Virus genome (UHGV): UHGV-0114740
DNA from: a virus
Length of the DNA stretch: 35,468 bases
Direction: 5' to 3' (one strand)
The notes below the pieces were generated by a model, which ran no database searches, was not told the DNA's origin, and saw nothing but the letters and a program-made list of their open reading frames with translations. Position 1 is the first letter of the stretch, and each line of letters begins with the position of its first letter. Position numbers and translations under genes: made by a program. Shown in pieces: positions 41 to 18,297 of the stretch.

Positions 41-49
41 GCGGTTTCC

Positions 50-1950: not shown

Positions 1951-3135
1951 ATGAGTGAAACTCGTTTTCATGGTGCCCGTGTTACGGAAAATACCGACCT
2001 GGTAACAGCGATTAACGATGTTGATTCCAGCGTTATCGGTATCGTGGCAACGGCGGATGATGCGGACGCGAAGCTGTTCCCGCTGAACAAGCCCACATTG
2101 CTGACCCGCGTCAATGACGTGCTGGGAAAATGCGGAACAACGGGGACGCTTTATCGTGCGCTTAAGGCCATCGCAGACCAGGTGAGCACAAAGGTGATCG
2201 TCGTTCGCGTGGCTGAACACAAAGAAGAAGACGGAAAGACGCAGGATCAACTGGTTATCGGTGGTTCTGAGGATGACGGCAGCTATACGGGGATGTATGC
2301 GCTGCTTGTTGCAGAGCAGGATGAAAGCATCGGATACCGTCCGCGTATTCTGGCCGCGCCGGAGCTGGACACGGAGGCTGTAACAAAATCCCTGTGCGTG
2401 ATTGCAGGTAAACTGCGCGCGTTTGTGTATGCCTCATGTCACGGCTGTAACACGATGGCTGAGGCGATTACCTATCGCCAGAAATTCAACGAACGTGAGG
2501 TGATGCTCTTATGGCCGGACTTCATCGCCTACAACCCGAAAAGTGGCAAAAACGAAACGTTCCCCGCGCCTGCCTATGCGTGCGGCCTTCGTGCGTACAT
2601 TGACCATGAGCAGGGGTGGCACAAATCACTGTCCAACGTTCCGGTTAAAAATGTGCTGGGGATGTCGAGGCATGTGTTCTGGTCGTTGCAGGCCGAAGAC
2701 AGCGATGCCAACAGCCTCAACAACAAAGAAATCACGACCATTATTCGTCGCAACGGGTTCCGCTTCTGGGGCAACCGCACACCGGAAACGAACGCCTACA
2801 TCTTTGAGGTGTATACCCGAACCGCACAGGTGCTGGCTGATTCAATTGCGGAAGCGCAGTTTGAAACCATCGACAGTCCACTGACGCCTGCGAACGTGAA
2901 GGATGTTATCAGTGCCATCAGGGCAAAACTGGATTCGCTGGTTACTGCCGGGAAACTGATTGGCGCGGAGTGCTGGTATGACGTGGTGGATAACGGCACC
3001 ACGGATTTACGTCAGGGGCGTGTGCGTATTCGCTACAAATATACGCCCGTTCCGCCACTGGAAGACATGGAGCTTTACCAGACGTTTACTGATGAATTCT
3101 TTGGTCCCGCATTTGCGGTGCTGGGAGGTGCCTGA
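1951..3135 (+). CDS. FI: Contractile tail sheath protein FI
   Basis: 394-aa translation aligns by eye along its length with P2 FI (LRAF.Y..CHGC, LWPDF, EQGWHK.LSNV, RRNGFRFWGNRT, YTPVPPLE). Confidence 0.9.
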   Translation: MSETRFHGARVTENTDLVTAINDVDSSVIGIVATADDADAKLFPLNKPTLLTRVNDVLGKCGTTGTLYRALKAIADQVSTKVIVVRVAEHKEEDGKTQDQLVIGGSEDDGSYTGMYALLVAEQDESIGYRPRILAAPELDTEAVTKSLCVIAGKLRAFVYASCHGCNTMAEAITYRQKFNEREVMLLWPDFIAYNPKSGKNETFPAPAYACGLRAYIDHEQGWHKSLSNVPVKNVLGMSRHVFWSLQAEDSDANSLNNKEITTIIRRNGFRFWGNRTPETNAYIFEVYTRTAQVLADSIAEAQFETIDSPLTPANVKDVISAIRAKLDSLVTAGKLIGAECWYDVVDNGTTDLRQGRVRIRYKYTPVPPLEDMELYQTFTDEFFGPAFAVLGGA

Positions 3136-3647
3136 TGGCTGTACCAAAACATCTTCGCTTTTTTACGTTGTTTGTGGATGGTGAAAACGAAGTGGGTAAA
3201 GTGACATCCGTCACGCCGCCCAAACTGACGCGCAAAACCGACAGCTATCGTGGTGGTGGCATGATGGGGGCGGTAAGTATTGATCTCGGTCTGGACGACT
3301 CCGCGCTTGATGCGAGTTTTGTCATGGGGGGAGCTGTTCGTGCGCTGTTCCTTAAATATGGCGGCACGATTGACGGCACGCTGCTGCGTTTTGCGGGTGA
3401 ATACTACACCGATGCAGAAAGCGATCTGTATGAAATCGAGATGCGCGGACGTGTGACGGAAATTGATATGGGGGAAGCCAAACAGGGCGAAGCCACATCA
3501 CACACTTACGCTGTCAAAAACACCTACTACAAGCTGAGCGTTAACGATCGCCCGCTGTGGGAAATCGACCTGTTGAACCACATCTACCGGAAGGACGGCA
3601 AGGACATTGTGCCTGACCGTATCCGTTCCGCACTTGGGCTTGGCTGA
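3135..3647 (+). CDS. FII: Tail tube protein FII
   Basis: 170 aa, directly downstream of the sheath with ATGA start/stop overlap; size and position match P2 FII. Confidence 0.85.
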   Translation: MAVPKHLRFFTLFVDGENEVGKVTSVTPPKLTRKTDSYRGGGMMGAVSIDLGLDDSALDASFVMGGAVRALFLKYGGTIDGTLLRFAGEYYTDAESDLYEIEMRGRVTEIDMGEAKQGEATSHTYAVKNTYYKLSVNDRPLWEIDLLNHIYRKDGKDIVPDRIRSALGLG

Positions 3648-3701
3648 TAAGTAATATGCAGGCGGCGCAGTGCGTCGCCTCTGACTGAAAGGAGTTTCCT
3701 G

Positions 3702-4067
3702 ATGAAAGAGACGAAAAACATCGATAACGAAAACACGGTCGTTGCTGACACTGTGAAAGAAACCAGTGAGCGTGGCGTAAAACTTACCCAACCAATTGAG
3801 CGAGGCGGCGAAAAAATCACGTATGTGGAGATTACCGGAGCTATTGAGCAGGCTGGATCTCTGCGAGATTTGTCGCTGTCTGATGTGCTGAATCTGAAAG
3901 CGGAATCCATGTTTACGCTGCTGTCACGCGTGACATCACCGCGACTGGATGAAGTGACGATCAAAAAAATGGCATCCCGTGACTTTATTCAGTTATGTGT
4001 GGTTGCCGTAAATTTTTTGAGCGGTGCGGACTCTGGCGGGAAGAACGAACAGGCGACGGAAGCCTGA
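3702..4067 (+). CDS. E: Tail assembly chaperone E (0-frame product)
   Basis: Position between tube and tape-measure genes; SD GGAG upstream; contains a slippery heptamer near its 3' end. Confidence 0.75.
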   Translation: MKETKNIDNENTVVADTVKETSERGVKLTQPIERGGEKITYVEITGAIEQAGSLRDLSLSDVLNLKAESMFTLLSRVTSPRLDEVTIKKMASRDFIQLCVVAVNFLSGADSGGKNEQATEA

Positions 4068-4231
4068 TCACGGTTGTGTGCTTTGAGCACATAGAAGACT
4101 TTGTGGCAGATATTGCCGTTATTTTTAACTGGTCGCCCGCCGAAATCTTCATGATGACGCCCGGCGAAGTGGTTAGCTGGCGTGAGCGGGCGGCACTTCG
4201 CAGCGGGAGTGCAGACAATGAAGACTCTTGA
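3702..4231 (+). CDS. E+E' frameshift fusion product (tail assembly chaperone, long form)
   Basis: Inferred by joining E (3702..4019) to the -1 frame ORF ending at 4231 via the slippery site; not experimentally verifiable here. Confidence 0.5.
4013..4019 (+). other. Candidate -1 programmed ribosomal frameshift site T_TTT_TTG (E to E+E')
   Basis: Heptamer lies in E frame as aaT TTT TTG; the -1 frame continues as the track ORF 3995..4231, which ends inside the start of T, as for P2 E/E'. Confidence 0.6.
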
Positions 4232-7025
4232 TATCCGGGTCGCTTTCAGCGCCGTTGACAGGCTGACCCGGCCTGCCGAAAACGCCCGCCGCCTGATGGG
4301 GCAGTTTGGTGACTCCATCCAGCGAACGCAGGGGGCGATCAAAAATCTCGAGCGTCAGGCGCGTTCATTTGAGCGCGCCCGTGACGCTGTCAGTAAAGCG
4401 GATGCGGGCATCGTGAAAGCACGACGCCAGCTTAACGCCCTTAATCAGTTACAACGCACGGGTACAGTGCTCAGCGAAAAACAACAAAAGCTGATGCAGC
4501 AGTTAAGCACCCGGCTTGAACGCCTGAATGAATCGCGCACGCGGGAAATTCAGAAAATGCGGGAGCTTGGCGGAGAGCTGAAACGCCACGGCATTTCCCT
4601 GACAGGCAGCGATAACACCATCCAGCAGGCCATCAGACGCACCGAACAGTACAACAACCAGCTTGAACGCGAACGGCAGGCGCTTGCGCGTGTAACGCGG
4701 GCGCGTGAGCGGTATTCGCGCGCGCAGGAAACAGCGGGAAAACTGAAAACAGGTGGTGCACTGGCAATTGGTGCGGCAGCGGCGGGCGGCTATGCTGCCG
4801 GGCGTTTTTTGCAGCCTGCGATCGGGTTCGGCAAAGAGATGTCCCGCGTTCAGGCACTGACGCGAATCGACCAGAACAGCCCGCAGTTTAAGGCGCTGCG
4901 TGAGCAGGCGTTAAAACTTGGCTCTGAAACGCAGTTCACCGCAGGCGATGCCGCCAGTGGACAGGCATTTCTTGCAATGGCTGGCTTCACTCCGCAGGCC
5001 ATTCAGGCTGCGCTTCCCGGCGTGCTGAGCATGGCAACGGCTGGCGGTATGGATCTCGGCGAGACGGCAGATATTGGCTCAAATATCCTGACGCAGTTCG
5101 GCCTTTCTGCTGACCAGATGGACCGGGTCGGTGACACACTCACCGCAGCGTTTACCCGTACCAACACTGACCTTCGCGCACTGGGCGAAACCATGAAATA
5201 TGCAGGTCCGGTGGCGGGTAAGCTGGGAATATCGCTGGAGCAGGCCGCAGCGATGGCGGGCGTGCTGGCGAATATGGGCATCAGAGGGAGTGATGCCGGG
5301 ACGGCAATGCGTGCCAGCCTGGCTCGTCTGGCATCACCGCCAAAGGCGGCGGCAGAAGCTCTGAAAGAGCTGGGCGTGTCCGTCTCGGATGCCGGGGGCA
5401 AAATGCGCCCGATGGAAGATCTGCTGGCTGACCTTTATAAAGCTACCCGCAAATACGGGGAAGTTGACCGGGTATCCTTCTTTAAGGACATCGCCGGGGA
5501 AGAGGCTTTCACATCGTTTATGGCACTCGTTGATGCGGCGGGTGACGGTTCCTTACCCAAACTGAGAAAAGAACTTGAGGGCGCACGCGGTGAGGCTGAA
5601 CGCACGGCAAAGGTTATGGCCGACAACCTTGATGGCGACCTGAAAAATCTCGACAGCGCATGGGAAGGTCTTCGTATTCGCATCAGTGATCTGGTTGACG
5701 GTCCGCTGCGTTCTATCACGCAGTGGCTAACACGGGTGGTCTCAAAGGTGACGGTACTGGCGCAGGCCCATCCTGTACTGACGCGCCAGCTACTGATTGC
5801 AGGCGGTGCGCTGCTGGCAGTGACTGCAACCGTAGGCTCATTGGCGCTTGCTCTTGGTGTGCTTGCTGGCCCGCTGGCAAAACTGCGTCTTGGTTTTTCC
5901 CTCCTGATCGGATCAATGAATGCTGTCAGGGTCCTGCCAGCACTATGGGGAATGGTGACGGGTTCCGTTTCTTTGCTGGGAGGTGCTATCGGGGCGCTGT
6001 TCAGTCCGGTTGGTCTTATCGTGGCTGCGCTTGCCGGAGCTGCCATTCTTATCTGGAAATATTGGGATCCCATCAGGGCATTTTTTGCCGGGGTGTTCAG
6101 CGGAATTATGGAAAGGCTGACCCCGTTGCGCGAAACCTTTGAACGGTTTGGTCCTGTTTTTGACGCAATCGGAAGCGGGATCAGCCAGGTGTTTAACTGG
6201 TTTAAATCGCTGTTGTCACCGATGGAGTCCAGCAAGGAAACGCTGGATAAATGCACCAGTGCTGGCGAGGTATTCGGCAACGTTCTTGGTGGCGCGTTAC
6301 AGCTTGTTCTGACGCCAGCAAAAATGTTGCTGGATACGCTGGCGTGGATACTTGAAAAACTCGGTGTGCTTCCGGATGAAGCGGAAAGGGCGAGAAAGAA
6401 AATCGAAGACGCACAGCGTGCGGCCATTCTTCAGGACAAGGTTGCCTTGCTTCAGGGTGACCTGGCGAAAACTAATCCGCCGAAGCCTGTGGAAAATGGC
6501 AATGGCACCGGAGGTGATAAACCCAAAGACAACAAACCGCTCACAGACAGCAATACCGGTACGCTACGCAGACTCAGCAAAATTGCTGATAACACAGGTA
6601 AGCTGGTTGATGAGACGAAAAAACGCATTGGCCCCGGCGATATTGTCTTTAAGAACCTGCCCCGCGCACTTGCCGTTCGTGGGGAGTGGCAGGAGCGGAA
6701 GATTGCGCAGGTCAGTAAGCCTGCCCCCGCAATTAATATCCCGCCTGTGGTTCCGGCCCTGCTGCCTCCGGCGCTGGTCCCTGTTGTTGCGGCCAGCTCC
6801 CGCCCGGTGGCGGAGGCCATACGATCGCCAGTGGCATCAGCCCCAACACCTTCGCGTAACCGGGAACCTGTTGCCTCAGGACTTGGCGGTGAAATTCATG
6901 TTCATCTGCATAACGTTGTTACGCAGAATCCCCGCGAACTGGCGAAACTGGTCGGTGAAATGGTCAGGGCAGAAATGGAACGGCGCGCCCGTGCCGGGCG
7001 TGGCAGTTTTTACGATAAAGATTGA
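4218..7025 (+). CDS. T: Tail tape measure protein T
   Basis: ~940-aa ORF after E/E', coiled-coil-rich N-terminus, hydrophobic middle, Pro/Ala-rich C-terminus. Start placed at MKTLD (4218) with SD GGGAG; the track ORF begins at 4182. Confidence 0.85.
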   Translation: MKTLDIRVAFSAVDRLTRPAENARRLMGQFGDSIQRTQGAIKNLERQARSFERARDAVSKADAGIVKARRQLNALNQLQRTGTVLSEKQQKLMQQLSTRLERLNESRTREIQKMRELGGELKRHGISLTGSDNTIQQAIRRTEQYNNQLERERQALARVTRARERYSRAQETAGKLKTGGALAIGAAAAGGYAAGRFLQPAIGFGKEMSRVQALTRIDQNSPQFKALREQALKLGSETQFTAGDAASGQAFLAMAGFTPQAIQAALPGVLSMATAGGMDLGETADIGSNILTQFGLSADQMDRVGDTLTAAFTRTNTDLRALGETMKYAGPVAGKLGISLEQAAAMAGVLANMGIRGSDAGTAMRASLARLASPPKAAAEALKELGVSVSDAGGKMRPMEDLLADLYKATRKYGEVDRVSFFKDIAGEEAFTSFMALVDAAGDGSLPKLRKELEGARGEAERTAKVMADNLDGDLKNLDSAWEGLRIRISDLVDGPLRSITQWLTRVVSKVTVLAQAHPVLTRQLLIAGGALLAVTATVGSLALALGVLAGPLAKLRLGFSLLIGSMNAVRVLPALWGMVTGSVSLLGGAIGALFSPVGLIVAALAGAAILIWKYWDPIRAFFAGVFSGIMERLTPLRETFERFGPVFDAIGSGISQVFNWFKSLLSPMESSKETLDKCTSAGEVFGNVLGGALQLVLTPAKMLLDTLAWILEKLGVLPDEAERARKKIEDAQRAAILQDKVALLQGDLAKTNPPKPVENGNGTGGDKPKDNKPLTDSNTGTLRRLSKIADNTGKLVDETKKRIGPGDIVFKNLPRALAVRGEWQERKIAQVSKPAPAINIPPVVPALLPPALVPVVAASSRPVAEAIRSPVASAPTPSRNREPVASGLGGEIHVHLHNVVTQNPRELAKLVGEMVRAEMERRARAGRGSFYDKD

Positions 7026-7031
7026 GGAGTC

Positions 7032-7526
7032 ATGGCCATGATGATGATCTACGGCATGTTTGTTTTTGAGCTGCGCACGCTGCCGCATCAGCAGTTACAG
7101 CAAAACAAAAGCTGGCGGCATGTGAAAAATGAACGCGTTAACCGTTCAGCAAGCTGGCAGTATATCGGTGCAGGTGATGATCGCATCGTTCTTTCTGGTG
7201 TGCTTTATCCTGAAATTACAGGTGGCGAAGTGTCGCTGTCGCTGCTGACCACGCAGGCGTATACAGGACGACCCTGGCCTTTGATTGATGGCGTCGGGCA
7301 GATTTACGGCATGTATGTCCTGACCGGAACGAATACGACCCGTTCCGAGTTTGATCGCTACGGTAAGGCGAAAAAGATAGAATTTTCACTGACCCTTGAA
7401 CGCTGTGATGAGGATTTGCGGGAGCGCCTGCAATCCTCATCGTTCAGTGATATGCTGTCCGGCTTCAAAGATAAGGTCACATCCTCCCTTAACAGCGCGG
7501 CCAGCTCCGTTAAAGGGCTGTTTTGA
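7032..7526 (+). CDS. U: Tail protein U
   Basis: 164 aa immediately after T; N-terminus MMMIYGMFVFELRTLPHQQLQ resembles P2 gpU. Confidence 0.8.
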   Translation: MAMMMIYGMFVFELRTLPHQQLQQNKSWRHVKNERVNRSASWQYIGAGDDRIVLSGVLYPEITGGEVSLSLLTTQAYTGRPWPLIDGVGQIYGMYVLTGTNTTRSEFDRYGKAKKIEFSLTLERCDEDLRERLQSSSFSDMLSGFKDKVTSSLNSAASSVKGLF

Positions 7527-7533
7527 TTAACGC

Positions 7534-7563
7534 AAAACCGCTAATGGTCAGATTAGCGGTTTT
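7534..7563. terminator. Probable bidirectional intrinsic terminator between convergent U and invertase genes
   Basis: Perfect 12-bp stem AAAACCGCTAAT / ATTAGCGGTTTT with 6-nt loop, T-run after it on + strand and on the - strand; overlaps the last codons of the invertase. Confidence 0.5.
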
Positions 7564-8152
7564 CATTTTCCTGAGTCTGCCTGGTTGTTTCTTCAGCCTG
7601 TATATCGCCTACAGGGTGATAACGATAAATCGTCGATATGCCGATGTCGTAAATGATCGCCAGTTGTTTCCTGTCATGACCGTTTTTGATCAGCCTTGCT
7701 ATTTGCTCATGCTGTTCTTTTGTCAGCTTCGGGCGACGTCCGCCTGTGCGCCCCCGTGCGCGCGCTGCCGCCAGTCCGGCCAGTGTACGTTCAACAATTA
7801 ATTCACGTTCCATTTCAGCCAGGGCACCCATAACGTGGAAGAAAAAACGCCCCATTGGAGAAGATGTATCTATGCTGTCGGTCAGACTGCGAAAATTAAT
7901 CCCTCGCTCCCGTAGTTCCCCGACGAGAGAAATCAGATGTTTCATGCTTCGCCCGAGGCGATCCAGTTTCCAGACAACCAGCGTGTCACCTTTTTGAAGC
8001 CGCTTTAAAGCGCGTTTTAATCCCGGTCGGTCTGTCTTTGTCCCGCTTAATTTATCTTCAAATATTTGTTCACATCCTGCACAAACAAGAGCGTTTCGTT
8101 GCAGGTCTGTATTCTGGTCATTTGTTGATACCCTTACATAACCAATCAGCAC
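7553..8152 (-). CDS. Serine-recombinase DNA invertase (Gin/Hin/Cin/Pin family)
   Basis: Translation LIGYVRVSTNDQNTDLQRNAL...TLVVWKLDRLGRSMKHL...SLTDSIDTSSPMGRFFFHVMGALAEMERELI is near-identical in blocks to Mu Gin. Start taken as GTG at 8152 after SD GGGAGA; the track uses TTG at 8170. Confidence 0.9.
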   Translation of the reverse strand: MLIGYVRVSTNDQNTDLQRNALVCAGCEQIFEDKLSGTKTDRPGLKRALKRLQKGDTLVVWKLDRLGRSMKHLISLVGELRERGINFRSLTDSIDTSSPMGRFFFHVMGALAEMERELIVERTLAGLAAARARGRTGGRRPKLTKEQHEQIARLIKNGHDRKQLAIIYDIGISTIYRYHPVGDIQAEETTRQTQENENR

Positions 8153-8206
8153 ACTGAATCTCCCGTCCAAAAGCGCAAATCATGCCATGCAGGCCGGAAA
8201 CGGCCA

Positions 8207-8232
8207 TTATCTAAAACCTCGGTTTGCAGGAA
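8207..8232. promoter_or_regulatory. gix/hix-like 26-bp inversion crossover site (left)
   Basis: TTATCTAAAACCTCGGTTTGCAGGAA; its reverse complement matches the site at 11510..11535 at 23/26 positions and resembles the Gin gix site. Confidence 0.65.
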
Positions 8233-9471
8233 ACGGTAAATCTGGCTTCTGGCGCATTACAAAAAAACCAGAACGGCGCGGATATTCCTGATAAGGATCG
8301 CTTCCTGAGTAACATTAATGTTTACAGCAAAGGCGAGGTGGATAAGAAAAAAGGAATGCGGCAGTACGCATTTAATGCGCCGTCTAATGCAGTTGGTGGA
8401 AAGTGGTATCCAGTTATTTTCCGGCGTTCCACAGGCAGCACTGGCGAGCTGGCTTCCAGAGTGATTATAACGACCACATCTGCCAGTGGTGATTACGCAA
8501 TGAATAACTGCGAATTCAATGGAATGGTAATGCCTGGTGGCTGGACTGATCGTGGTTCATATGCGGCAGGTTATTTTTCGACGTATCAGACTAATGAGCG
8601 CGCAATCCATTCCATTGTAACAAGCCTTAAAGAAGATGATGTATGCAGCGTTTTTTACGTTGAAGGCAGGGCTTTTCCTGTGCGAGTTTTTGCCGAAGAA
8701 GGGCTAACGGTTATTGTTCCAACTCAGGATTATACCGTCGGTCAAACAACATATAAGTGGGGAGCAACTAATCCCGCGACAGAAAGCACGAACGCACAAG
8801 CCATTCTGGATTTTAACAATGGGCGAGGGTTTTATTGTTCTCACTCAATATTCGGTATTAATGCCATTTTTAGCGGAAATCTGGGGATTGGAACGGCTAA
8901 TGCCCTGGGGGGAAATTCAATAGTTTTAGGAGATAACGATACTGGGTTTAAACAAAATGGTGATGGGGTGCTGGATGCTTATGCTAATGGTGTGCATGTA
9001 TTCCGCTTTAGAAATGGCTCAGCAATATCATTAAAGGGTATTCAGGCTGGGGAAAGTAAGTTATTCACACTTTCAAGTGCAAATACCGCTGCCCGTAATG
9101 CATCATTTAACTTGTGGGGAAATTCGTCAAGACCAACTGTTGCAGAGCTTGGTGATGATTCAGGCTGGCATTTCTATAGTCAGCGAAATACAGATAACTC
9201 GGTGACATTTGCTGTAAACGGTCAGATACAACCAAGCAACTGGGGTAACATTGATTCCAGATATGTGAAAGATGTTCGGCTTGGCTCACAGCAATATTAT
9301 GGTGTGAACAACTGGCAAACATGGAACTTCCAGTGCCCTTCAGGTCATGTATTGTCTGGTATAAATGTTCAGGATACAGGTTCCAACTCCGCCGATAATA
9401 TTGCGGGTGTTTATTACAGACCCGTTCAAAAGTATATAAATGGCACATGGTATAATGTAGCGAGCGTTTAA
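8224..9471 (+). CDS. Alternative tail-fibre C-terminal cassette (silent in this orientation)
   Basis: Begins [21 protein letters not shown], the same junction peptide found inside H ([21 protein letters not shown]), then diverges; ends ...[11 protein letters not shown] versus H ...INGTWYNAGSI. No independent start expected. Confidence 0.75.
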
Positions 9472-9472
9472 T

Positions 9473-10000
9473 ATGATGCACTTAAAGAACATAAAAGCGG
9501 GTAACGCTAAAACACTGGAACAGTATGAGTTAACAAAGAAGCATGGAGTCATCTGGCTTTACACTGAAGACGGGAAAAACTGGTATGAGGAAGTGAAGAA
9601 CTTTCAGTCAGACACAATAAAGATTGTTTACGATGAAAATAATATTATTGTCGCTATCACCAGAGATGCTTCAACGCTTAATCCTGAAGGTTTTAGCGTT
9701 GTTGAGGTTCCTGATATTACCTCCAACCGACGTGCTGACGACTCAGGTAAATGGATGTTTAAGGATGGTGCTGTGGTTAAACGGATTTATACGGCAGATG
9801 AACAGCAACAACAGGCAGAATCACAAAAGGCCGCGTTACTTTCCGAAGCGGAAAGCGTTATTCAGCCACTGGAACGCGCTGTCAGGCTGAATATGGCGAC
9901 GGATGAGGAATGCGCACGACTGGAGTCATGGGAACGCTACAGTGTTATGGTCAGCCGTGTGGATACGGCAAAGCCCGAATGGCCACAAAAGCCTGAGTAA
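9473..10000 (+). CDS. Tail fibre assembly chaperone, alternative copy
   Basis: 175 aa, [11 protein letters not shown]...; paralogous to the chaperone at 10029..10562 and directly follows the alternative fibre cassette. Confidence 0.8.
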
Positions 10001-10028
10001 AAATTAAGGCCCGATATCAGGCCTTCTC

Positions 10029-10562
10029 TCATTCTGGTTGTTCGGGAAACGTTACTGGCAGGCTGGAAGTGTCTGTAGATTCGACTTTCTGCGCAAAGAG
10101 CATCCACTCTGTTAATTTTTGTTTATTCTCGTCGGAAATGATGCCCAGCCGTAGCTGTGAGTCCCATAGCTGGGTTTTATCCCTGACGAGCTGTAGCAGG
10201 CTTTGCTTTTCATTTTCCGCCTGCTGCCTCTGCTCTTCCTCGGTATAAGTTCGCTTTACCACTACGCCATCTTTGAACATCCATTTACCCGAAATGTCAG
10301 CACGGCGATTTGCTGTAATATCAGGTAATTCAACGACGCTTGCGCCTTCCGGATTAATTGCTGAAACATCCTTTTCAATACAAATAATAACGCCGTTATG
10401 GTCATAGACCATTTTCAAAGTGTCTGGCTGGAAATTCTTTTGTTCCTCATACCAGTTTTTTCCATCCTCTGAATAAAGCCATTTGATGTTAAATTGTTTC
10501 GTTAGCTGGTATTGCTCTTTTGTTTTAGGGTTGCCAGCAGTAATGTTTTTTAAGTGCATCAT
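10029..10562 (-). CDS. Tail fibre assembly chaperone (G-like), expressed copy
   Basis: 177 aa, MMHLKNITAGN...; immediately downstream of H on the same strand, as P2 G follows H. Confidence 0.8.
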   Translation of the reverse strand: MMHLKNITAGNPKTKEQYQLTKQFNIKWLYSEDGKNWYEEQKNFQPDTLKMVYDHNGVIICIEKDVSAINPEGASVVELPDITANRRADISGKWMFKDGVVVKRTYTEEEQRQQAENEKQSLLQLVRDKTQLWDSQLRLGIISDENKQKLTEWMLFAQKVESTDTSSLPVTFPEQPE

Positions 10563-10564
10563 CG

Positions 10565-12799
10565 TTAAATACTCCCCGCGTTATACCACGTCCCATTAAT
10601 GCAATACTGAACTGGCCTTGCCTGAGTTGTATCAATTAATTCATCACGGTTTCCGTTAACTGAACCCGTAACGACATAACCTGACCTGTCAGACCAGCCG
10701 GGACCATTCCATGTCTGAACAGATGACAGACCGCCCAAGCGAATACCTGTAATAAACCTTGAATTACATTCTGCCTGCGTATATGCACCAACATCCCCCG
10801 CAGAGGGTTTGCGGGTTGTGGTGTAAAACTCTGACCAGTTAGCTTCAAAGCCATAACCATCACGCGCTGAACGATAAAAGATACCGCCGTTCCTGTAATT
10901 CACGCGGAACTGTACAGCAGGGCAACTCCCCGCATTCATATTGAAGTGGAGGATTAATGTCGATGCACCACTGATATCTGCATCATAAACACCGCTATTC
11001 CAGTTCCAGCCAACAGCTTTATCATTTGCGACCCTGCGTCCTGTTTGCCCTAAAGCAAATGCAGGCTGCTGGTTTTTCGTGTTGTAGTCTCGTCGCCAGC
11101 CAGGAGCATAAGCATCACCATGATTAATATAGGTGAATTGAGCGTTAGTAATTCCGCCGCCGCTGGACGTACTCGGCGTAGTAACGCGTATGGTCATTGC
11201 GCCGCGAGTGCCAATAACTTCCACCACAGCACCTGCAAGACAAATATTTCCGCAACCTGTATCTGTAATGACCTTATTATTTGCATAAGCCCATGAGCCT
11301 TTGCACATCCAGTAAGGATGGTTAAATGCCCCCTGACTCTCCAGCCACGAAATAAATTGCGCAGTTGTCCAGACCTGACTATCGCCACCAATATTCAGCC
11401 ATGCGCTATATGCGCGGCAGGCACCAATGTTTTTGGTGAAGGTATCTTTACCCGGAATATCTGCGCCGTTCTGGTTTTTCTGTAATGCGCCAGAAGCCTG
11501 ATTTACCGTTTCCTGTAAACCGAGGTATTCGATAACGGCAGCAACGGTCGATTTCGCAAGAATATCCCGCCCGACTTTTGTCAGGGTTGCCAGGCTGGCG
11601 ACATCATTCCCCGTAAAATACGGAAACCTGTCTGCCGCAGTAGCAAGCCCGGCCAGCGCCGTCAGGGTGGCATCTTTCGGTTGCTTACCCGCAAGCGCGT
11701 TAGTCATGGTGGTCGCAAAATTCGGGTCGTTTCCCAGCGCCGCCGCTAACTTGTTCAGCGTATTCAGTGCGTCAGGTGACGAATCTACAAGGGCGGCAAT
11801 CGCAGCCATAACGAAAGCCGTGCTTGCGATTTGGGTATTATTCGTTCCCTGTCGCGCAGTTGGCGTTGTTGGCGTTCCGGTCAGCGCAGGACTGTTTAAA
11901 GGCGCTTTCTTGTTCGTTTCATCCATTACCGCCTTAACCGCTTTTGGTGTCGCAGCCAGCGTTTCAGACGGGCTGTTAGTGGCGCTACTGAGCTGAACTA
12001 TCCCTTTTCGTGCCGTCGTTGCGTCCTGAGCGGTATATTTTGCGTTAGCAAGGTCATATGCCGCCTTTACTGCTTTCGGCGTTGCAGCCTGCGTTTCAGA
12101 CGTGCTGTTGGTTGCACTGCTGAGCTGGACTATCCCTTTTCGTGCCGTCGTGGCGTCCTGAGCGGTATATTTTCCGTTAGCCAGGTCATACGCGGCCTTA
12201 ACCGCTTTCGGCGTTGCGGCCAGCGTTTCAGAATCGCTGTTAGTGGCGCTACTGAGTTGAACAAAGCCTTTTGCGGTCAGCGAGGCATCCGGGTGACGTC
12301 GTGACTGTTCATGCTCTTTCAGTTTGTCATCCACGTAATCCACTGTGGCCATCACCATGGTGTTATCCACGGTAAGCGCCACGCTGGCAGTGCTGGATAC
12401 GGTCAGAATGGTGCGAAATGTTTGTGCACGTCCGGACCCCTCGGCAACGGTTGGCTTGTAACTTTCGGCAGTATTGCCCACCGCGATTAAATCGCCGTGC
12501 TCATCAAATACACCAATTTCCCGGATCCAGAATCCGCCCGTTTCAGGAGGTATAACCAGCTCCGCAATAATGCGGTTCTGATGTGTTGCGTCCAGGATGA
12601 CGCGATTAACAGTGTGTCGCCACACCTCATGCACCAGACGGGTCTGCTTACTGTCTGGTGTGGGCAACGTGCCGCCACCGTCGCCCACGGCCATATGAGT
12701 CAGGCGGACAGGCTTACCATCTGGCGCGGCTGCCTGAGCTAATTTTTTTGCACCTGTATCGGTGATAACGGTTTTAAATTTTCGTGTTGTGGTACTCAT
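10565..12799 (-). CDS. H: Tail fibre protein H (constant N-terminal part plus currently joined variable C-terminal cassette)
   Basis: 744 aa; internal tandem fibre repeats; the C-terminal ~315 aa lie inside the invertible segment. Confidence 0.9.
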   Translation of the reverse strand: MSTTTRKFKTVITDTGAKKLAQAAAPDGKPVRLTHMAVGDGGGTLPTPDSKQTRLVHEVWRHTVNRVILDATHQNRIIAELVIPPETGGFWIREIGVFDEHGDLIAVGNTAESYKPTVAEGSGRAQTFRTILTVSSTASVALTVDNTMVMATVDYVDDKLKEHEQSRRHPDASLTAKGFVQLSSATNSDSETLAATPKAVKAAYDLANGKYTAQDATTARKGIVQLSSATNSTSETQAATPKAVKAAYDLANAKYTAQDATTARKGIVQLSSATNSPSETLAATPKAVKAVMDETNKKAPLNSPALTGTPTTPTARQGTNNTQIASTAFVMAAIAALVDSSPDALNTLNKLAAALGNDPNFATTMTNALAGKQPKDATLTALAGLATAADRFPYFTGNDVASLATLTKVGRDILAKSTVAAVIEYLGLQETVNQASGALQKNQNGADIPGKDTFTKNIGACRAYSAWLNIGGDSQVWTTAQFISWLESQGAFNHPYWMCKGSWAYANNKVITDTGCGNICLAGAVVEVIGTRGAMTIRVTTPSTSSGGGITNAQFTYINHGDAYAPGWRRDYNTKNQQPAFALGQTGRRVANDKAVGWNWNSGVYDADISGASTLILHFNMNAGSCPAVQFRVNYRNGGIFYRSARDGYGFEANWSEFYTTTRKPSAGDVGAYTQAECNSRFITGIRLGGLSSVQTWNGPGWSDRSGYVVTGSVNGNRDELIDTTQARPVQYCINGTWYNAGSI
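11510..11535. promoter_or_regulatory. gix/hix-like 26-bp inversion crossover site (right, inside H)
   Basis: TTCCTGTAAACCGAGGTATTCGATAA, inverted relative to the site at 8207..8232; encodes the conserved junction EYLGLQETV. Confidence 0.65.
11929..12271 (-). repeat. Three tandem ~105-bp coding repeats in the tail fibre gene
   Basis: Protein repeats KG(F/I)VQLSSATNS.SET.AATPKAVKAAYDLAN.KYTAQDATTAR x3, visible as near-identical DNA blocks. Confidence 0.8.
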
Positions 12800-12801
12800 G
12801 C

Positions 12802-13332
12802 TTAATCGTCCGGATAAATGGTAATAACTTCACCGTCATAAGTTGCCGCCGCTGCAAAAATATCCCCCGGAATTTCCTGAATGATATTCAGCCCTGTCAT
12901 GTGGCGGCTGACTGGACGGGCATCAGCAATCAACCGCTCCATTTCCAGATACATTTCCTCAGTCACACCACTGTCCAGCGTGCCAACATCAACCTTGAAT
13001 GTTCCGGGTTCGCCGTCGAACTCCCACCACTCAGACACGCGAATGAGGTATCCCAGCGACTCAATGGCCCGGCGCAGTGCGCTGATGGTCCCTTTGTGTC
13101 GGTGTATCAGCCATGCATCACGAATAACCTGTCGCTTTGTCTCTTCCGGCCAGTTGCGATCCCAGCGGTCAACGGAAAATGCCCAGGCGAGATAAGGCAG
13201 CAGATGCACCGGGCAGGTGTCCGGTGACCACAGCGTGTTGAGGTCTACCGGGATGTTTGTAATGCGCGCTCCGACAGCTTCGGCGCAACGCATGAAATTG
13301 CTGGCTGATGGTGGTAACAGTGAATTACTCAT
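12802..13332 (-). CDS. I: Baseplate assembly protein I
   Basis: Translation has WSPDTCP..LLPYLAWAFSVDRWD and MERLIADARPVSRH blocks matching P2 gpI; start chosen at the internal Met after J. Confidence 0.85.
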   Translation of the reverse strand: MSNSLLPPSASNFMRCAEAVGARITNIPVDLNTLWSPDTCPVHLLPYLAWAFSVDRWDRNWPEETKRQVIRDAWLIHRHKGTISALRRAIESLGYLIRVSEWWEFDGEPGTFKVDVGTLDSGVTEEMYLEMERLIADARPVSRHMTGLNIIQEIPGDIFAAAATYDGEVITIYPDD

Positions 13333-14221
13333 TACGCCCACCTTCGCTGATGGTGAATGACTCACAGCGCGCCGCCTGTATGTCGCTAATGGCCATATTC
13401 TGTGTGGGTTCGATTATCTCCACGCGTTGCACACCGTGCACATGCAGTGCGGCAGCAATGGCGGACAACGCCACATCCTGACCGATAAGCCCCTGCTCAG
13501 CCAGCCACTTCCTGAACGACGATTCAGCCGCAGCCAGAATAGGTTCGGATTCCGGGCCGGGGTAAAAGTACAGTTTTGCATTCAGCCGCCATGTCACGAT
13601 TCTGGCACTCTGTACGGTCAGGCGGTCGGCCACCGGGCGGGTATCCTCTGCATTCAGAACGGCGCGAACGGTATTAAGCAACGCCTCCGTTGCTGTGCCG
13701 TCGCCTTCAGTGGACAGAATGGAAACCGTCACATTTGCCGGAGACGGACTGATAGCCCGCGCATCACGCACCAGACCGCTGGCGCTGCGGGCAAAATACT
13801 CGTATGCACCTGACGGGCCAGCAACACTCAGGCCGTCGTACGCCCGCTGCGCCCGCAGTCTCAGCGAGGTGTCGCTCTCCATCACCGCGTCGGTGGTATC
13901 TGTTGCCGGAGTGATAACCAGGCGCTTTGTGTTCATATTGCCCGCGAGGTTGTCCAGGTCTGTCCCGGCGCTGTGACTTAACATGCAGGCGCGTGCACCC
14001 TCATTGACCCGCTGGCGTAACAGCATTTCACGAAAAGACATGATTTGAGCGATAACGTTCAGTGGTTCTGATTCCAGTTCCAGCGCGGCGGAGACGGCTT
14101 CACGCTGTTCGGCGGGATAAGCCGCAATCATCATGGCCTTTGTGTCAGCCAGAATTGCCTCAAAATCAGGCTCCGCGATGATGGCGGGTTCCGGTAACTG
14201 GGAAAGGTCAACGGCAGGCAT
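13325..14221 (-). CDS. J: Baseplate assembly protein J
   Basis: 298 aa, position and size as P2 gpJ, between W and I. Confidence 0.8.
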   Translation of the reverse strand: MPAVDLSQLPEPAIIAEPDFEAILADTKAMMIAAYPAEQREAVSAALELESEPLNVIAQIMSFREMLLRQRVNEGARACMLSHSAGTDLDNLAGNMNTKRLVITPATDTTDAVMESDTSLRLRAQRAYDGLSVAGPSGAYEYFARSASGLVRDARAISPSPANVTVSILSTEGDGTATEALLNTVRAVLNAEDTRPVADRLTVQSARIVTWRLNAKLYFYPGPESEPILAAAESSFRKWLAEQGLIGQDVALSAIAAALHVHGVQRVEIIEPTQNMAISDIQAARCESFTISEGGRNE

Positions 14222-14223
14222 GA

Positions 14224-14574
14224 TTACTCCCTCAGCGTGATGGTTAATTCAACATTCTGCATGGTCTGCATGACAGTGCCCGACAGCGTCACCCCGGCGC
14301 GGCCTCCCGCTTTCCAGACAACGTCGATGGCATCCAGGGCAATGCGGGGTTCCCATCGTGTCAGCGCAATCACGGCAGCACTCATGCATTGCAGACGCGT
14401 GGTGTTATTCATGGGTTCGTCAATCAAATCAGGCACAAGGCTGCCATATTCCCGTCGCATAACCCGGCTTGCCAGCGGGGTGGTCAGGATGTCCCTGACT
14501 GACTGTTTCAGGTGCTCCATATCGTTCAGGTTTCCCGTTCCGTCCGGGTTCATTCCTGTGTAGCGGGTTGTCAC
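14224..14574 (-). CDS. W: Baseplate protein W
   Basis: 116 aa; size and order (V-W-J-I) as in P2. Confidence 0.75.
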   Translation of the reverse strand: MTTRYTGMNPDGTGNLNDMEHLKQSVRDILTTPLASRVMRREYGSLVPDLIDEPMNNTTRLQCMSAAVIALTRWEPRIALDAIDVVWKAGGRAGVTLSGTVMQTMQNVELTITLRE

Positions 14575-15152
14575 TGCGGGCCTCCTGTCGAATCGCTGCC
14601 ACCTTTAACGCCACCGTGTTTATGCGTATGCACGGTAATGCCGTTTGAGGTGAAGTTGCCGCCGCTGTGCGTGATATTGCCGCTCATCTTTCCTCCTTTT
14701 GTGACGTCAAGCGTCGCCGTTCTCAGAAGGTTTGTGCATTCCACGACGGGCGTATCCAGTTTCACGCTGACGGATGCCTGTAAAGTGGCCGTTTTCATGC
14801 CGCTGGCGCTCAGTGCGCCTGCGTCCGCGTCGTAGCTGAACACCGCGCCATCCGGCGCGCTGACCACGATTTCTTTCAGGCTTTTGCCGGGGGCCGGACT
14901 GGCATCACTCCACAGGCTGCCAATTATCATGGCGGTTTCCGGGTTGCCGCCAATGCAGGCAATTGCCACCTGTTCGCCGGGTGATGGCGGCAGCCACACA
15001 TTGAAGGCTCCCGCGCGCGTGGTGTTCCAGCGCAACCAGCCTGTTTCCAGTTCGCCGCTGCGAACGCGCACGCACCAGGATTCCTCATCAACTTCAGAGA
15101 TGATCCCGGTGCGGATGATGTTGCTCAGCAGTCGCATGAGTTCTGCGCTCAC
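14571..15152 (-). CDS. V: Baseplate spike/assembly protein V
   Basis: 193 aa; ATGA overlap with W; order as in P2. Confidence 0.75.
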   Translation of the reverse strand: MSAELMRLLSNIIRTGIISEVDEESWCVRVRSGELETGWLRWNTTRAGAFNVWLPPSPGEQVAIACIGGNPETAMIIGSLWSDASPAPGKSLKEIVVSAPDGAVFSYDADAGALSASGMKTATLQASVSVKLDTPVVECTNLLRTATLDVTKGGKMSGNITHSGGNFTSNGITVHTHKHGGVKGGSDSTGGPQ

Positions 15153-15793
15153 CGTACAGCCTCCGCAATCCGGCCCAGCACCGTGTTATAAATCAGGCGT
15201 TCATCTGCCTGGCTGATACCCAGCAGCTCACGTACCGGGTAATCGGTGAAAATGCCCGGCGCAACCTGATCGCGCTCACCGAACTGATGAACGCGTGCAA
15301 TACGTGCGGCCACGCCGCTGTAACCCACCGTCACACCGGAAGCATCTGCACGGGCTTTCAGGTAGCGGGCGGTGCGCAGTTTTACGAACATGGGGACGCG
15401 CTTTGTGCTGTCCTGGTTGATGCGCCGGGTGCGTATTTCCAGAAAACGGTCGATGTCATCCCGGTAAAACGTGCGGATATTGTTTTTATCCTCATCCCAC
15501 CCGGTAATGGTTCGCCCGTATTTCCCCGTGTCGTGATGCCAGTTTTTCAGCGTGCGTGCTTCGTTATTCCAGATAAAGCGAATGCGCTCCTGTATCCGGG
15601 TTACGCGGCGTCTGCGTGGTGTCCATGCAGTCCCGTCCGGCGCTTTCTGTGACCGGATACGTGCCTGCTGGGCGCGGCGTAAATCCTGTGCCAGCTTTCT
15701 GGCGATGTTATTGATGGCCTGCTGATTCAGGCTGTCGCGGATGGCCTCAAAGGTTTCATCCACGCGGGTGAATGCCTTATCCATCGCTTTCAC
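15149..15793 (-). CDS. S: Virion morphogenesis / tail completion protein (gpS-like)
   Basis: 214 aa, basic; sits between R and V as P2 S does but is longer than I remember P2 S to be. Confidence 0.6.
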   Translation of the reverse strand: MKAMDKAFTRVDETFEAIRDSLNQQAINNIARKLAQDLRRAQQARIRSQKAPDGTAWTPRRRRVTRIQERIRFIWNNEARTLKNWHHDTGKYGRTITGWDEDKNNIRTFYRDDIDRFLEIRTRRINQDSTKRVPMFVKLRTARYLKARADASGVTVGYSGVAARIARVHQFGERDQVAPGIFTDYPVRELLGISQADERLIYNTVLGRIAEAVR

Positions 15794-16244
15794 CCCACGT
15801 CACATCCTGGAATACATGCGACCAGTCGCCTTCGGAAGATGGCAGGCGGGGTTTTGGCTCCGGCAGGTGTTCTGCCTGCGGTGTGCCCTGACTGCTGCAC
15901 GTGATGCGAACGCGTTCCCGCAGGGGGAGCGTAAACAGGAGATCGGCGCTGTCATCGTCATTGATAACGGCGGAGAATTTGATGTCCTGATTACGCTCCG
16001 GATTGAGCAACAACTGTGGCTGATTTTCGGATAACCACGCCAGCAGCGGCAGCGTGAGGTCGTCCAGCTCCCCGGCGTAATCCATGACAAACATCACCAT
16101 CTGATAGCGGTAAACAAACGAGGGCGTTTCTCCGGTCGTTTCAATGTTGCCGCTCTCCACGAAAATGGTGAATTTTTCCGGGTTAGCCTGACACCATCGG
16201 CATGAACGGGTCATGGCTTCACGCAGGGAATCAGTTTTCAGCAT
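15777..16244 (-). CDS. R: Tail completion protein R
   Basis: 155 aa; position after the lysis cassette and before S, as in P2. Confidence 0.7.
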   Translation of the reverse strand: MLKTDSLREAMTRSCRWCQANPEKFTIFVESGNIETTGETPSFVYRYQMVMFVMDYAGELDDLTLPLLAWLSENQPQLLLNPERNQDIKFSAVINDDDSADLLFTLPLRERVRITCSSQGTPQAEHLPEPKPRLPSSEGDWSHVFQDVTWGESDG

Positions 16245-16551
16245 GGTTGTTGTCCTCGTTGTTCAGTCGTTGCAGCCTGCGCTGTTCCAGTAATTCAATG
16301 GCCCGTTTATCCGCGTTACAGGTTTCCAGTGCATCCAGAAGGCGGTCGCCCCATATACCGAGATTTCCCCATGTGGGAGTGTCAGGGAAGGGGGGAGGCG
16401 TTACCGGTATGGTCAGCGTCTGCGGTATAAGCCGGACTGACGGCGCTGGCCGTAGCGCGTTCTGCGTGCCTGCGCAGCCTGTCAGTAAAACGAGCGTCAG
16501 GCAAAGCGTGGGCGCATTCATCTTTTGCAATATCGTTGCGTAGCTGTTCAC
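16231..16551 (-). CDS. o-spanin (Rz1-like outer-membrane lipoprotein)
   Basis: Signal peptide with lipobox LLTGC, Pro-rich mature part (PVTPPPFPDTP); lies in a different frame overlapping the 3' end of the i-spanin. True start may be the internal Met (MNAPTLC). Confidence 0.65.
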   Translation of the reverse strand: MNSYATILQKMNAPTLCLTLVLLTGCAGTQNALRPAPSVRLIPQTLTIPVTPPPFPDTPTWGNLGIWGDRLLDALETCNADKRAIELLEQRRLQRLNNEDNNHAEN

Positions 16552-16789
16552 GTCTGACCTCTCCGTCCTGATTGCGTTGCTGATTTTCCACGCGGAGTTG
16601 CGCCAGCACCTGCTGCATATCCTGTACCCCGGCGCTGATGATATTCAGGGTGTCGGCGGTACTTTTCAGGGTGCTGGCCTGTGCTTCGTTTCTGGCGTTC
16701 TCCCGGCCAAGCGACCATGACAGACGCATGGATGTTCCCCATGCGGCAATCAGAAGGAAAGCGACGCCCAGCGTGGGCCAGAGCTTCAT
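16382..16789 (-). CDS. i-spanin (Rz-like inner-membrane spanin)
   Basis: Start placed at MKLWPTLGVAFLLIAAWG (N-terminal TM segment) with ATGA overlap onto the endolysin stop; coiled-coil-like remainder. The track ORF extends further 5' in another protein's coding region. Confidence 0.65.
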   Translation of the reverse strand: MKLWPTLGVAFLLIAAWGTSMRLSWSLGRENARNEAQASTLKSTADTLNIISAGVQDMQQVLAQLRVENQQRNQDGEVRREQLRNDIAKDECAHALPDARFTDRLRRHAERATASAVSPAYTADADHTGNASPLP

Positions 16790-17178
16790 GCCGGATAGGC
16801 TCCGTGTGGTAACTGAAAATGCGGTCCGTCTTTCAGAGTCTTCCAGTCGCCGCCCCATTCCACCGGAATATTCAGTTCCCGGCTGGCCTGTCTGAATGCT
16901 GCTGCGATTTTTTCGTACAGCGGCCATTCCCATGACACCTGGCTGCCGATATAAGCCACAACATCCACGGCATGCCCCGTAAGGTGGCGGCTGTTCATGG
17001 TCTGGCTCTTACCTGTGGCCACCAGTTGCTTCTGGCGGTAACGGCTGCGCACCCCTTCGGTGATACCAAAATCCACTTCCGAGATTTCCAGTGCCCGTCG
17101 GGTCACTTTCACCAGATCAGGATTTACGCCCTGCAAATTCTTTTCGCTCCGGCTGCTGAATTTAAATGTGTTGCTCAT
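16786..17178 (-). CDS. Endolysin, probable zinc peptidase (M15 / L-Ala-D-Glu peptidase type)
   Basis: 130 aa between holin and spanins; motif HLTGHAVDV plus a downstream His is reminiscent of VanY/M15 peptidases. Differs from the P2 K lysozyme-type endolysin. Confidence 0.6.
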   Translation of the reverse strand: MSNTFKFSSRSEKNLQGVNPDLVKVTRRALEISEVDFGITEGVRSRYRQKQLVATGKSQTMNSRHLTGHAVDVVAYIGSQVSWEWPLYEKIAAAFRQASRELNIPVEWGGDWKTLKDGPHFQLPHGAYPA

Positions 17179-17513
17179 TCGTCCTTCTCCTTCACCCTGC
17201 GATTAAAGGCCGCAATAACCTTGTCGCGTGCTTTCTCTGCACCCATAAAACCGATTGATGCGCCGATAAACGTCACGGCATCTTCAGGAAACCCGAAGAA
17301 GCGCAACGACCCGGCCACGGCCATGGCAAGAACGCCGCACGCCAGCGATCCCGTTACGGTCTGAACCAGTGTTCGTCCGTCATAAAGACTCATCAGCGCG
17401 GAAATGCTGACCGCCGCGCCTACTGCATACACCGTTGGCAGGTGGTCAAAGAGCCACGCAATAACCTGCTCTGTGATCCCTGTTTGAATGGTGCTCACTG
17501 CTACTTCCCCCAC
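17175..17513 (-). CDS. Putative holin
   Basis: 112 aa with ~3 hydrophobic helices and a charged C-terminus (RRVKEKDE); position between X and endolysin corresponds to P2 Y. Confidence 0.6.
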   Translation of the reverse strand: MGEVAVSTIQTGITEQVIAWLFDHLPTVYAVGAAVSISALMSLYDGRTLVQTVTGSLACGVLAMAVAGSLRFFGFPEDAVTFIGASIGFMGAEKARDKVIAAFNRRVKEKDE

Positions 17514-17701
17514 AACTGAATCATTTCTCGTTTCTTCTTCTCCGGCTCCGGCATCTCAACTTCCTGCCCGGCGTCCAGAAATACCTGCTGACAGAGTCCG
17601 GGGTTGGCATCCAGCACCTTTTCGGTGACGCCCTGCGTCGTGCCGTAGTACCGGAAACAGAGCGAATCCACGGTGTCGCCTTCCAGTGCCTTCACTTTCA
17701 T
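17501..17701 (-). CDS. X: Tail protein X
   Basis: From internal Met MKVKALEGDTVDSLCFRYYG...ANPGL, resembling P2 gpX (MKTFALQGDTLDAICVRYYG...ANPGL). Confidence 0.8.
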   Translation of the reverse strand: MKVKALEGDTVDSLCFRYYGTTQGVTEKVLDANPGLCQQVFLDAGQEVEMPEPEKKKREMIQLWGK

Positions 17702-18204
17702 CAGCACAACTCCGCAAAGATTCGCGGGCGGCACAGAATGTCAGAGATGGCCCAGCTCACATCACGCCACAAATCCGATGTCTGTATATCCAGAGCGTCC
17801 GCCCGGCGGTCGCCCTTGTCCGTTGTGTCTGCATCACGATAACGCTCCAGAATCAGGGCGCGCGTGGCGGTATAAACAGCATTGCGCCAGTGCCAGAGAT
17901 TGACGCTTTCTCCGTTAATTACGGGTGCCGGAACATCGGCCAGCGTCTGATGGCCAGCTGCCTGCTGTTCCTGCTGCCATGCTTCCAGCTCGCGGGTAAC
18001 GTGTGCCACAGCCCCGGTGGCAGTATGCAGCAGGCGGGAGGTGGTCACGCGGCCCGGCAGTCGTACCGCCAGACGCAGCTCGCGCAGCACAATATCCGGC
18101 CAGAATGCACCCGCTGAAATGCGGGTATCGCCATCATCGGTATCGGTGATGTCGTCCTCTGCGGGTCTGGGTTCAGTTCTGGCAACCATACTCATGGGGT
18201 TCAC
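17701..18204 (-). CDS. L: Head completion/stabilisation protein L
   Basis: 167 aa; size and position between M and X as in P2. Confidence 0.7.
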   Translation of the reverse strand: MNPMSMVARTEPRPAEDDITDTDDGDTRISAGAFWPDIVLRELRLAVRLPGRVTTSRLLHTATGAVAHVTRELEAWQQEQQAAGHQTLADVPAPVINGESVNLWHWRNAVYTATRALILERYRDADTTDKGDRRADALDIQTSDLWRDVSWAISDILCRPRIFAELC

Positions 18205-18297
18205 TCCTGAAAAAAATCGGGCGGTGGGTGCGCGGTGTAAACGGTCACGGAGTCAAACCGGAACACCGCGCACGCCGCCCGCTGACGGGGTCAGTCG

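Follow-up and report, generated by a model that had tools for sequence, protein, structure and literature searches.

The window analyzed here, the whole 35,468-nt stretch of virus genome UHGV-0114740, almost certainly carries a working Gin/gix-type inversion switch, that is, a Mu-like G segment with its gin in a P2-like Xuanwuvirus prophage. The switch in the window's own copy is very probably active. The invertible segment spans 3.3 kb, with a silent tail-fiber tip and its chaperone on one strand and the expressed tip and chaperone on the other. Among complete E. coli genomes, sibling prophages show the segment either way round, and the breakpoints fall within the 26-bp recombination sites. 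The locus comprises the following features.

7534-7563, no strand: terminator-like hairpin with a 12-pair stem (AAAACCGCTAATGGTCAGATTAGCGGTTTT) and T/A runs on both sides
7553-8152, minus strand: Gin-type serine DNA invertase, 199 aa from the GTG at 8152, the likelier start
7999-8059, minus strand: candidate recombinational enhancer, two Fis-like G-N13-C motifs towards the 5' end of the invertase gene
8207-8232, plus strand: gix-like site, invertase-proximal (TTATCTAAAACCTCGGTTTGCAGGAA; 24/26 identical to Mu gix, central TC)
8233-9471, plus strand: silent alternative C-terminal (receptor-binding) fiber part, without a start of its own in the present orientation
9473-10000, plus strand: silent tail-fiber assembly chaperone of the Mu U / P2 G type (Caudo_TAP, 1.2e-36)
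10029-10562, minus strand: expressed tail-fiber assembly chaperone of the Mu U' type (Caudo_TAP, 2.7e-36; 97.2% identical to Mu U')
10565-11509, minus strand: variable C-terminal portion of H that is expressed at present, of the Mu Sv' (G(-)) type (95.7% identity over 323 aa)
11510-11535, minus strand: gix-like site inside gene H (TTATCGAATACCTCGGTTTACAGGAA; 24/26 identical to Mu gix, central TC)
11536-12799, minus strand: constant N-terminal part of H, outside the invertible segment, with a Phage_tail_fib N-terminal domain and three Phage_fiber_2 repeats (Pfam)

The switch lies in the tail module of a Xuanwuvirus prophage

The host element is an E. coli prophage of the genus Xuanwuvirus (P2-like, Peduoviridae; phage P88 type). 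The window shares 96-98% nucleotide identity with P88 over positions 3-8304, 11497-24447 and 25658-30811, and gene order is conserved between the two. Pfam matches to FI, FII, T, U, D, V, W, J, I, R and S bear out the assignment of a P2-like tail module made in the preliminary description. PADLOC and Pfam scans found no defense system among the cargo ORFs.

In P2, the genes are ordered H-G-Z/fun-FI-FII-E-T-U-D, with Z/fun opposite in strand to the rest. The FI-to-U block lies on the opposite strand in the window and in all relatives examined. Because this block is reversed, the invertase gene has the invertible segment on one side and the 3' end of U on the other, separated from the convergent U gene by the hairpin, and does not adjoin FI. 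Its earlier placement in the P2 Z/fun slot is thus only approximate. More speculatively, the genus-wide FI-to-U reversal could date back to an ancient inversion by the invertase acting at secondary sites.

The invertase is a close relative of Mu Gin

The invertase ORF called mechanically (7553-8170, minus strand) reaches back to a TTG at 8170. The protein combines an N-terminal resolvase catalytic domain carrying the active-site serine (Resolvase, PF00239, 1.3e-50) with a C-terminal HTH domain (HTH_7, PF02796, 8.8e-13), as in the Din family. Over 191 aa it shares 82% identity with Mu Gin, and its top PDB matches are the Gin structures 4m6f and 3uj3 (~1e-101). Within the catalytic domain (residues 1-120), 118 of 120 residues are those of Mu Gin, including the YVRVSTNDQ motif, whose serine, residue 9 counted from the GTG, aligns with that of Gin. 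NCBIfam returned no specific family above cut-off for any of the five proteins. The gene sits just outside the segment, as had been proposed by analogy with gin and the Mu G segment, and the 54 bp between its start and the site are the same in Mu.

Kahmann et al. (1985) reportedly located the enhancer of Mu (sis) in the 5' part of gin. Din-family invertases need a recombinational enhancer with Fis sites in cis (PMC4513852). The first 200 nt of the invertase gene are 97.5% identical to Mu gin (195/200), and two Fis-like motifs are centered at gene nt 101 and 147. Mu, SfMu and P88 share the former unchanged; the latter, also found in SfMu and P88, departs from the Mu motif at a single non-consensus base. 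Given this likeness to the 5' region of Mu gin, the invertase gene here may carry its enhancer in the corresponding place.

Two gix-like sites bound the segment

Exact alignment upheld the two inverted 26-bp sites of the preliminary description, which are identical to each other at 23 of 26 positions. The comparison with gix that it had proposed as a check was made against the Mu sequence TTATCCAAAACCTCGGTTTACAGGAA, found at the annotated G-segment boundaries of NC_000929, and gave the scores listed above. As expected of the Din family, the sites are imperfectly palindromic and share the central dinucleotide TC. A gix-derived pattern allowing up to three mismatches found just these two sites in the 35.5-kb window (0 expected, from 100 shuffles). 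A scan of the full window against gix gave no third site of the kind that makes one E2348/69 prophage shufflon-like: the best other score, 17/26, is random background, so the window holds only two sites. Possible gix remnants bounding the reversed FI-to-U block reached 17/26 (7505-7530) and 14/26 (near 1850-2020) at best, no better than elsewhere.

The sites lie outermost in an inverted repeat of 114 nt (8203-8316 / 11426-11539) that is 85% complementary. The site within H encodes V-I-E-Y-L-G-L-Q-E. The crossover had been assigned to the conserved junction peptide, which is incorrect: it lies in the Y-L-G codons just ahead of QETVN, the central dinucleotide being part of the Leu codon in E-Y-L-G-L-Q-E, three codons upstream. 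Most of the junction peptide itself is encoded where the inverted repeat extends inwards from the site, whose last six bases supply only the first two residues (Q-E).

Inversion would exchange the fiber tip together with its chaperone

The ORFs agree with the earlier description of two alternative fiber C-termini and two paralogous chaperones bracketed by the sites. The chaperone genes, which had been described as head-to-head, are instead tail-to-tail (convergent), their 3' ends facing each other at 10000/10029. Gene H as a whole runs from 10565 to 12799 (minus strand), and its residues 1-502 are 87.5% identical to P88 H. As an ORF, the silent fiber C-terminus covers 8224-9471 (plus strand).

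Inverting the segment in silico places the silent tip in frame with the constant part of H, giving a fiber of 842 aa, compared with 744 aa in the current orientation. The silent chaperone then begins 1 nt past the stop of the alternative fiber. As in a G segment, the constant N-terminus fuses in frame with either tip and each tip has its own chaperone, which agrees with the proposal that inversion swaps the receptor-binding end of H and its chaperone. The two Caudo_TAP chaperones are 56% identical to each other, one being U'-like and the other, silent one U-like, sharing 89.7% identity with Mu U and 89.1% with P2 G.

The two tips are alike solely in their first 31 and last ~75 residues, and on this basis the tips of the two orientations would differ in host range. 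The nearest phage matches of the silent tip, the fiber C-termini of the Peduovirus phages 9W and P22H4, are 58% identical to it. SfMu gp52 shares 82% identity with its last 96 aa, and its central ~290 aa are unrelated to the Mu, SfMu and P88 tips. There is a small chance that the silent cassette (8233-9471) encodes a receptor-binding tip characterized so far in no phage. In that case, the prophage would alternate between the host range of Mu G(-) and a specificity yet to be characterized.

We propose that the invertase would bind both gix-like sites and recombine them at the central TC, presumably with the help of host Fis acting from a candidate enhancer near the 5' end of the invertase gene, and that this recombination would flip the 3.3-kb segment. 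In the present orientation, residues 1 to ~425, the constant part of H, are joined to the Mu Sv'-type tip and followed by the U'-type chaperone. In the other, the same constant part would be joined to a different tip of 415 aa and followed by the U/G-type chaperone. With two orientations, a lysogen population would therefore release two kinds of virion differing in receptor specificity. We infer that the reaction depends on Fis and the enhancer, and that it proceeds in the DNA molecule of the window.

Both orientations occur in related prophages

E. coli NR1430 carries the same prophage in the flipped state, and its annotated fiber matches the predicted 842-aa product at 840 of 842 residues (99.8%). 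The segment of phage P88 is also flipped relative to the window. The O145 strains RM9467-C1 and RM9872 have near-identical genomes that differ at the switch locus only by the inversion, with 3.3 kb inverted between flanks showing 0 mismatches over 5413 and 5408 nt. Comparison of NR1430, P88 and the O145 pair thus indicates that inversion between the sites does occur. Across complete E. coli genomes, the current junction is found in 126 and the flipped junction in 22. Invertible tail-fiber loci of P2-like prophages in the EPEC strain E. coli E2348/69 flip continuously, as seen by reads and PCR (Goldberg et al., 2014; PMC4272514).

These differences in orientation might have arisen by RecA-dependent homologous recombination across the 114-nt inverted repeat and not through the invertase. 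The arms share ~80 nt of near-perfect identity, and in the O145 pair the crossover can be placed only between site positions 9 and 83, both of which would suit such an origin. Marker analysis of the window against NR1430, however, confines the crossover to the 11-nt interval between site positions 9 and 20, which holds the gix core, despite ~70 further nt of homology. An intact Gin orthologue adjoins the sites, and RecA recombines repeats of ~100 nt poorly in comparison with a dedicated invertase. We therefore consider a RecA origin extremely improbable.

It is also very unlikely that the locus is a frozen relic, its parts intact but its invertase unexpressed or its variant sites unused, so that only the Mu Sv'-type fiber is made. 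A simple scan found no sigma-70-like promoter upstream of the invertase gene, the sites differ at 3 of 26 positions, and a single window displays one orientation only, all of which would fit a frozen switch. Against this, the invertase is identical at 199 of 199 residues to that of the RM9467 and RM9872 prophages, which differ by exactly this inversion; its catalytic domain is nearly that of the active Gin; and NR1430 holds the same cassette pair flipped at 99.8% identity. The sites themselves also speak against a relic: position 20 of the left site is G, where Mu gix has A, and this G-variant half-site is found in NR1430 on the opposite side. Having switched sides, it evidently took part in recombination. 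A working invertase-driven switch remains by far the better account of the locus.

Discussion

Gin/Cin/Pin switches are already known, also from P2-like E. coli prophages, and since both the switches and their occurrence in such prophages are established, current understanding is unchanged. The locus offers a clean natural case of phage bet-hedging on host range, and an example of modular exchange in which a Mu-type switch has been grafted onto a P2-type tail. For annotation, the RefSeq "hypothetical protein" beside the invertase is the silent half of a tail-fiber gene, and near-clonal strain assemblies can differ by a 3.3-kb inversion here and nothing else.

The Mu G segment shares with the window an invertase gene outside the segment and the Sv-U / U'-Sv' layout with convergent chaperones, and its Sv' and U' share 96-97% identity with the expressed tip and chaperone of the window. 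In contrast to Mu, the constant fiber part and the whole virion module of the window are P2-like, and its second tip is unrelated to Mu Sv across the central ~290 aa. The inverted repeat is ~114 nt here, that of the Mu G segment 34 bp. Phage P2 has homologous tail-module families, and its G is the 89% match of the silent chaperone, but P2 lacks an invertase and has one fiber tip only. Moreover, Z/fun fills the G-FI interval in P2, where FI-to-D is co-oriented with H.

The Cin/cix C segment of P1/P7, the Pin P segment of e14 and Salmonella Hin/hix likewise belong to the Din family, with Fis dependence and 26-bp sites, but reside in other host elements. Cassettes of P1, P7 and D6 match window positions 9427-11490 at 88-93%. 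The inverted repeats of P1 are much longer, and Hin controls a promoter, not a fiber fusion.

P88 and other Xuanwuvirus prophages have an annotated DNA invertase between the fiber cassettes and gpU, as in the window. P88 was deposited in the opposite segment orientation and carries another partner cassette, window positions 8305-9426 being unmatched in it; the P88 paper that was searched mentions neither an invertase nor an inversion. The P2-like prophages of E2348/69, compared here by description, likewise use an invertase and inverted repeats to switch tail-fiber C-termini, and both orientations of these loci coexist in single-colony cultures, as determined by sequencing and PCR (PMC4272514). 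One of the E2348/69 loci has three repeats and is shufflon-like, whereas the window has two sites.

A Gin-type tail-fiber switch

The segment and its surroundings comprise the following features, in which H is the tail-fiber gene, with its constant part outside the segment and its current tip inside.

7534-7563: hairpin between the convergent U and invertase genes
7553-8170, minus strand: resolvase/invertase ORF with an HTH_7 domain
8207-8232, plus strand: gix-like 26-bp site (left), TTATCTAAAACCTCGGTTTGCAGGAA
8224-9471, strand opposite to H: silent tip, a 415-aa open frame starting within the left site
9473-10000, strand opposite to H: second chaperone, sharing 90% identity with Mu U and 89% with P2 G
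10029-10562: chaperone following H, 97% identical to Mu U'
10565-12799, minus strand: H, with a P2-type collar domain and fiber repeats
11510-11535, minus strand: gix-like 26-bp site, TTATCGAATACCTCGGTTTACAGGAA

The site positions are exactly those given in the preliminary description, and the two sites match each other at 23/26 positions. Both sites were the sole matches in the 35.5-kb window to a Mu gix-derived pattern (≤3 mismatches), with 0 expected from 100 dinucleotide-preserving shuffles, and the full window scan revealed no third gix-like site, the next-best 26-mers reaching 17/26. In the Mu reference, TTATCCAAAACCTCGGTTTACAGGAA occurs twice, once per annotated G-segment boundary, so that each window site is 24/26 identical to a genuine gix. 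Both share the central dinucleotide TC, making them compatible for strand exchange, as is required, and each makes up the outer end of one arm of a 114-nt inverted repeat (8203-8316 and 11426-11539, 85% complementary).

Read from a GTG at 8152, the invertase is 199 aa long and 82% identical to Mu Gin, with two differences in the first 120 residues and the active-site serine motif kept; its closest solved structures are Gin crystal structures. Over its 5' 200 nt, the gene matches Mu gin at 195/200 positions and carries two Fis-like motifs as in Mu, the second differing at one non-consensus base. Because the Mu enhancer lies in the region matching these 200 nt, the 5' part of the invertase gene probably holds an enhancer too. 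A simple scan for an invertase promoter gave no sigma-70-like match.

Inside the segment, H shares 95.7% identity with Mu Sv'. The silent tip, which matches fiber C-termini from the Peduovirus phages 9W and P22H4 at 58% identity and, over its last 96 aa, SfMu gp52 at 82%, is by its sequence a normal fiber C-terminus. The chaperone genes, initially described as head-to-head, are instead convergent, as in the Mu G segment.

The constant part of H contains a tandem repeat (11929-12324; 132-nt or 44-aa unit, 2.5 copies by TRF) with a diverged third copy, 63% identical. H measures 744 aa here versus 700 aa in the related prophage of E. coli O145 RM9467-C1, a gap of exactly one 44-aa unit, which suggests that copy-number variation alters fiber length.

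Both orientations occur among related prophages

We inverted the segment in silico between the central dinucleotides of both sites. The constant part of H and the silent tip were joined in frame (842 aa), with the second chaperone starting 1 base past the fiber stop. The crossover had been placed in a conserved junction peptide; the dinucleotide instead falls in the Leu codon of E-Y-L-G, and most of that peptide is coded by the repeat's inner extension.

This predicted state exists in nature. In E. coli NR1430, the same prophage has its entire 3337-nt segment reversed, at 99.8% identity, and the fiber annotated there, of 842 aa, is 840/842 identical to the predicted product. Phage P88 matches the window at 96-98%, with both flanks on one strand and 9427-11539 on the opposite one. 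In O145 RM9467-C1 and RM9872, the prophage occupies a shared chromosomal position and the two strains carry the 3.3-kb segment in opposite orientations, with 0 mismatches over flanks of 5413 and 5408 nt and an invertase 199/199 identical to that of the window. A chimeric 851-nt query for the flipped H junction matched 22 complete E. coli genomes over its full length; the current junction was present in 126. Strain pairs of one lineage, such as 95JB1 and 95NR1, appear on both lists.

Markers differing between the repeat arms were used to map the crossover between the window and NR1430. Those through site position 9 remain with the flanks (position 6 being uninformative owing to an extra NR1430 substitution) and those from position 20 inward travel with the segment; from this split, the exchange is mapped within an 11-nt interval holding the gix core.

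A Gin-type invertasome reaction is the best-supported mechanism. Invertase dimers would bind both 26-bp sites, Fis at the enhancer would activate the complex, and strand exchange would take place at the TC dinucleotide in the middle of each site. Dependence on an enhancer bound by Fis is a defining trait of the Gin-type invertase family (PMC4513852). RecA-mediated exchange across the repeat is very improbable: with ~70 nt of extra homology available, it leaves a crossover at the gix core unexplained. That the switch is a frozen relic is also unlikely, since both states are seen with the same enzyme sequence and an almost identical pair of cassettes.

Gene order of the host prophage

The window is a nearly complete P2-like prophage; its left end carries hok and ogr, its right end cox, repressor and integrase. 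The prophage is a Xuanwuvirus, a genus (with phages P88 and 503458) in which a DNA invertase is already annotated at the same position.

50-190, minus strand: Hok/Gef-type toxin ORF
381-641, minus strand: ogr/delta zinc-finger late activator
684-1925, minus strand: D
1951-3135, plus strand: FI
3135-3647, plus strand: FII
3702-4067, plus strand: E
4182-7025, plus strand: T
7032-7526, plus strand: U

The first two are named after the annotation of the near-identical AH21F008 locus. P2 itself is arranged H-G-Z/fun-FI-FII-E-T-U-D-ogr, and there only Z/fun lies on the opposite strand. In the window, by contrast, the sheath-tube-tape-measure-U block is reversed, and H-I-J-W-V and D/ogr lie on the other strand. 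The Xuanwuvirus FI-to-U block thus places the invertase between the segment and the U end, so its proposed equivalence to the P2 Z/fun slot holds only approximately. The reversal also leaves D cut off from the F operon and divergent from FI over a short interval. As P88, 503458 and the AH21F008, O145 and NR1430 prophages share this arrangement, it is, on gene order, a genus trait. Scanning the ends of the block against gix revealed no gix remnants.

Other features of the prophage

Among complete genomes, AH21F008 is the closest relative, with 99.8% identity across the switch region. Its D is truncated and accompanied by a pseudogene fragment (13685-14538 of the AH21F008 locus), whereas the D ORF of the window is full-length; the AH21F008 prophage is probably defective, while that of the window may not be.

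A cargo slot at 24447-25658, between the portal and partition genes, is unlike both P88 and the 99.8%-identical AH21F008 prophage, and PADLOC gave 0 matches to defense genes within it. Its contents and neighbors are:

24487-25077, minus strand: Ead/Ea22-like protein, in the slot
25110-25598, minus strand: ORF without family, in the slot
within 25659-26105, minus strand: gene whose product has the Pfam domain Plasmid_stab_B (plasmid stability protein)
25975-26934, minus strand: ParM plasmid-segregation homologue, annotated in P88 and AH21F008

The ParM homologue and the Plasmid_stab_B gene are common to the window and P88. At 30564-30761 (minus strand), C4 antisense RNA (RF01695, 78.5 bits) and isrK (RF01394, 63 bits) both exceed the Rfam gathering score, their matches falling within an ORF of weak Ash-family similarity (30201-30818) or upstream of it; this region could be a P1-immI-like antisense-RNA/antirepressor module in a P2-like prophage.

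Comparison with known systems

The P88 paper that was searched leaves the invertase unmentioned; RefSeq records annotate it. Inversion of fiber segments by Gin, Cin and Pin is classical, and invertible loci of this kind in E. coli P2-like prophages flip continuously in culture, as seen by sequencing and PCR (Goldberg et al., 2014; PMC4272514). The switch described here is a known system, and the preliminary description had recognized it correctly.
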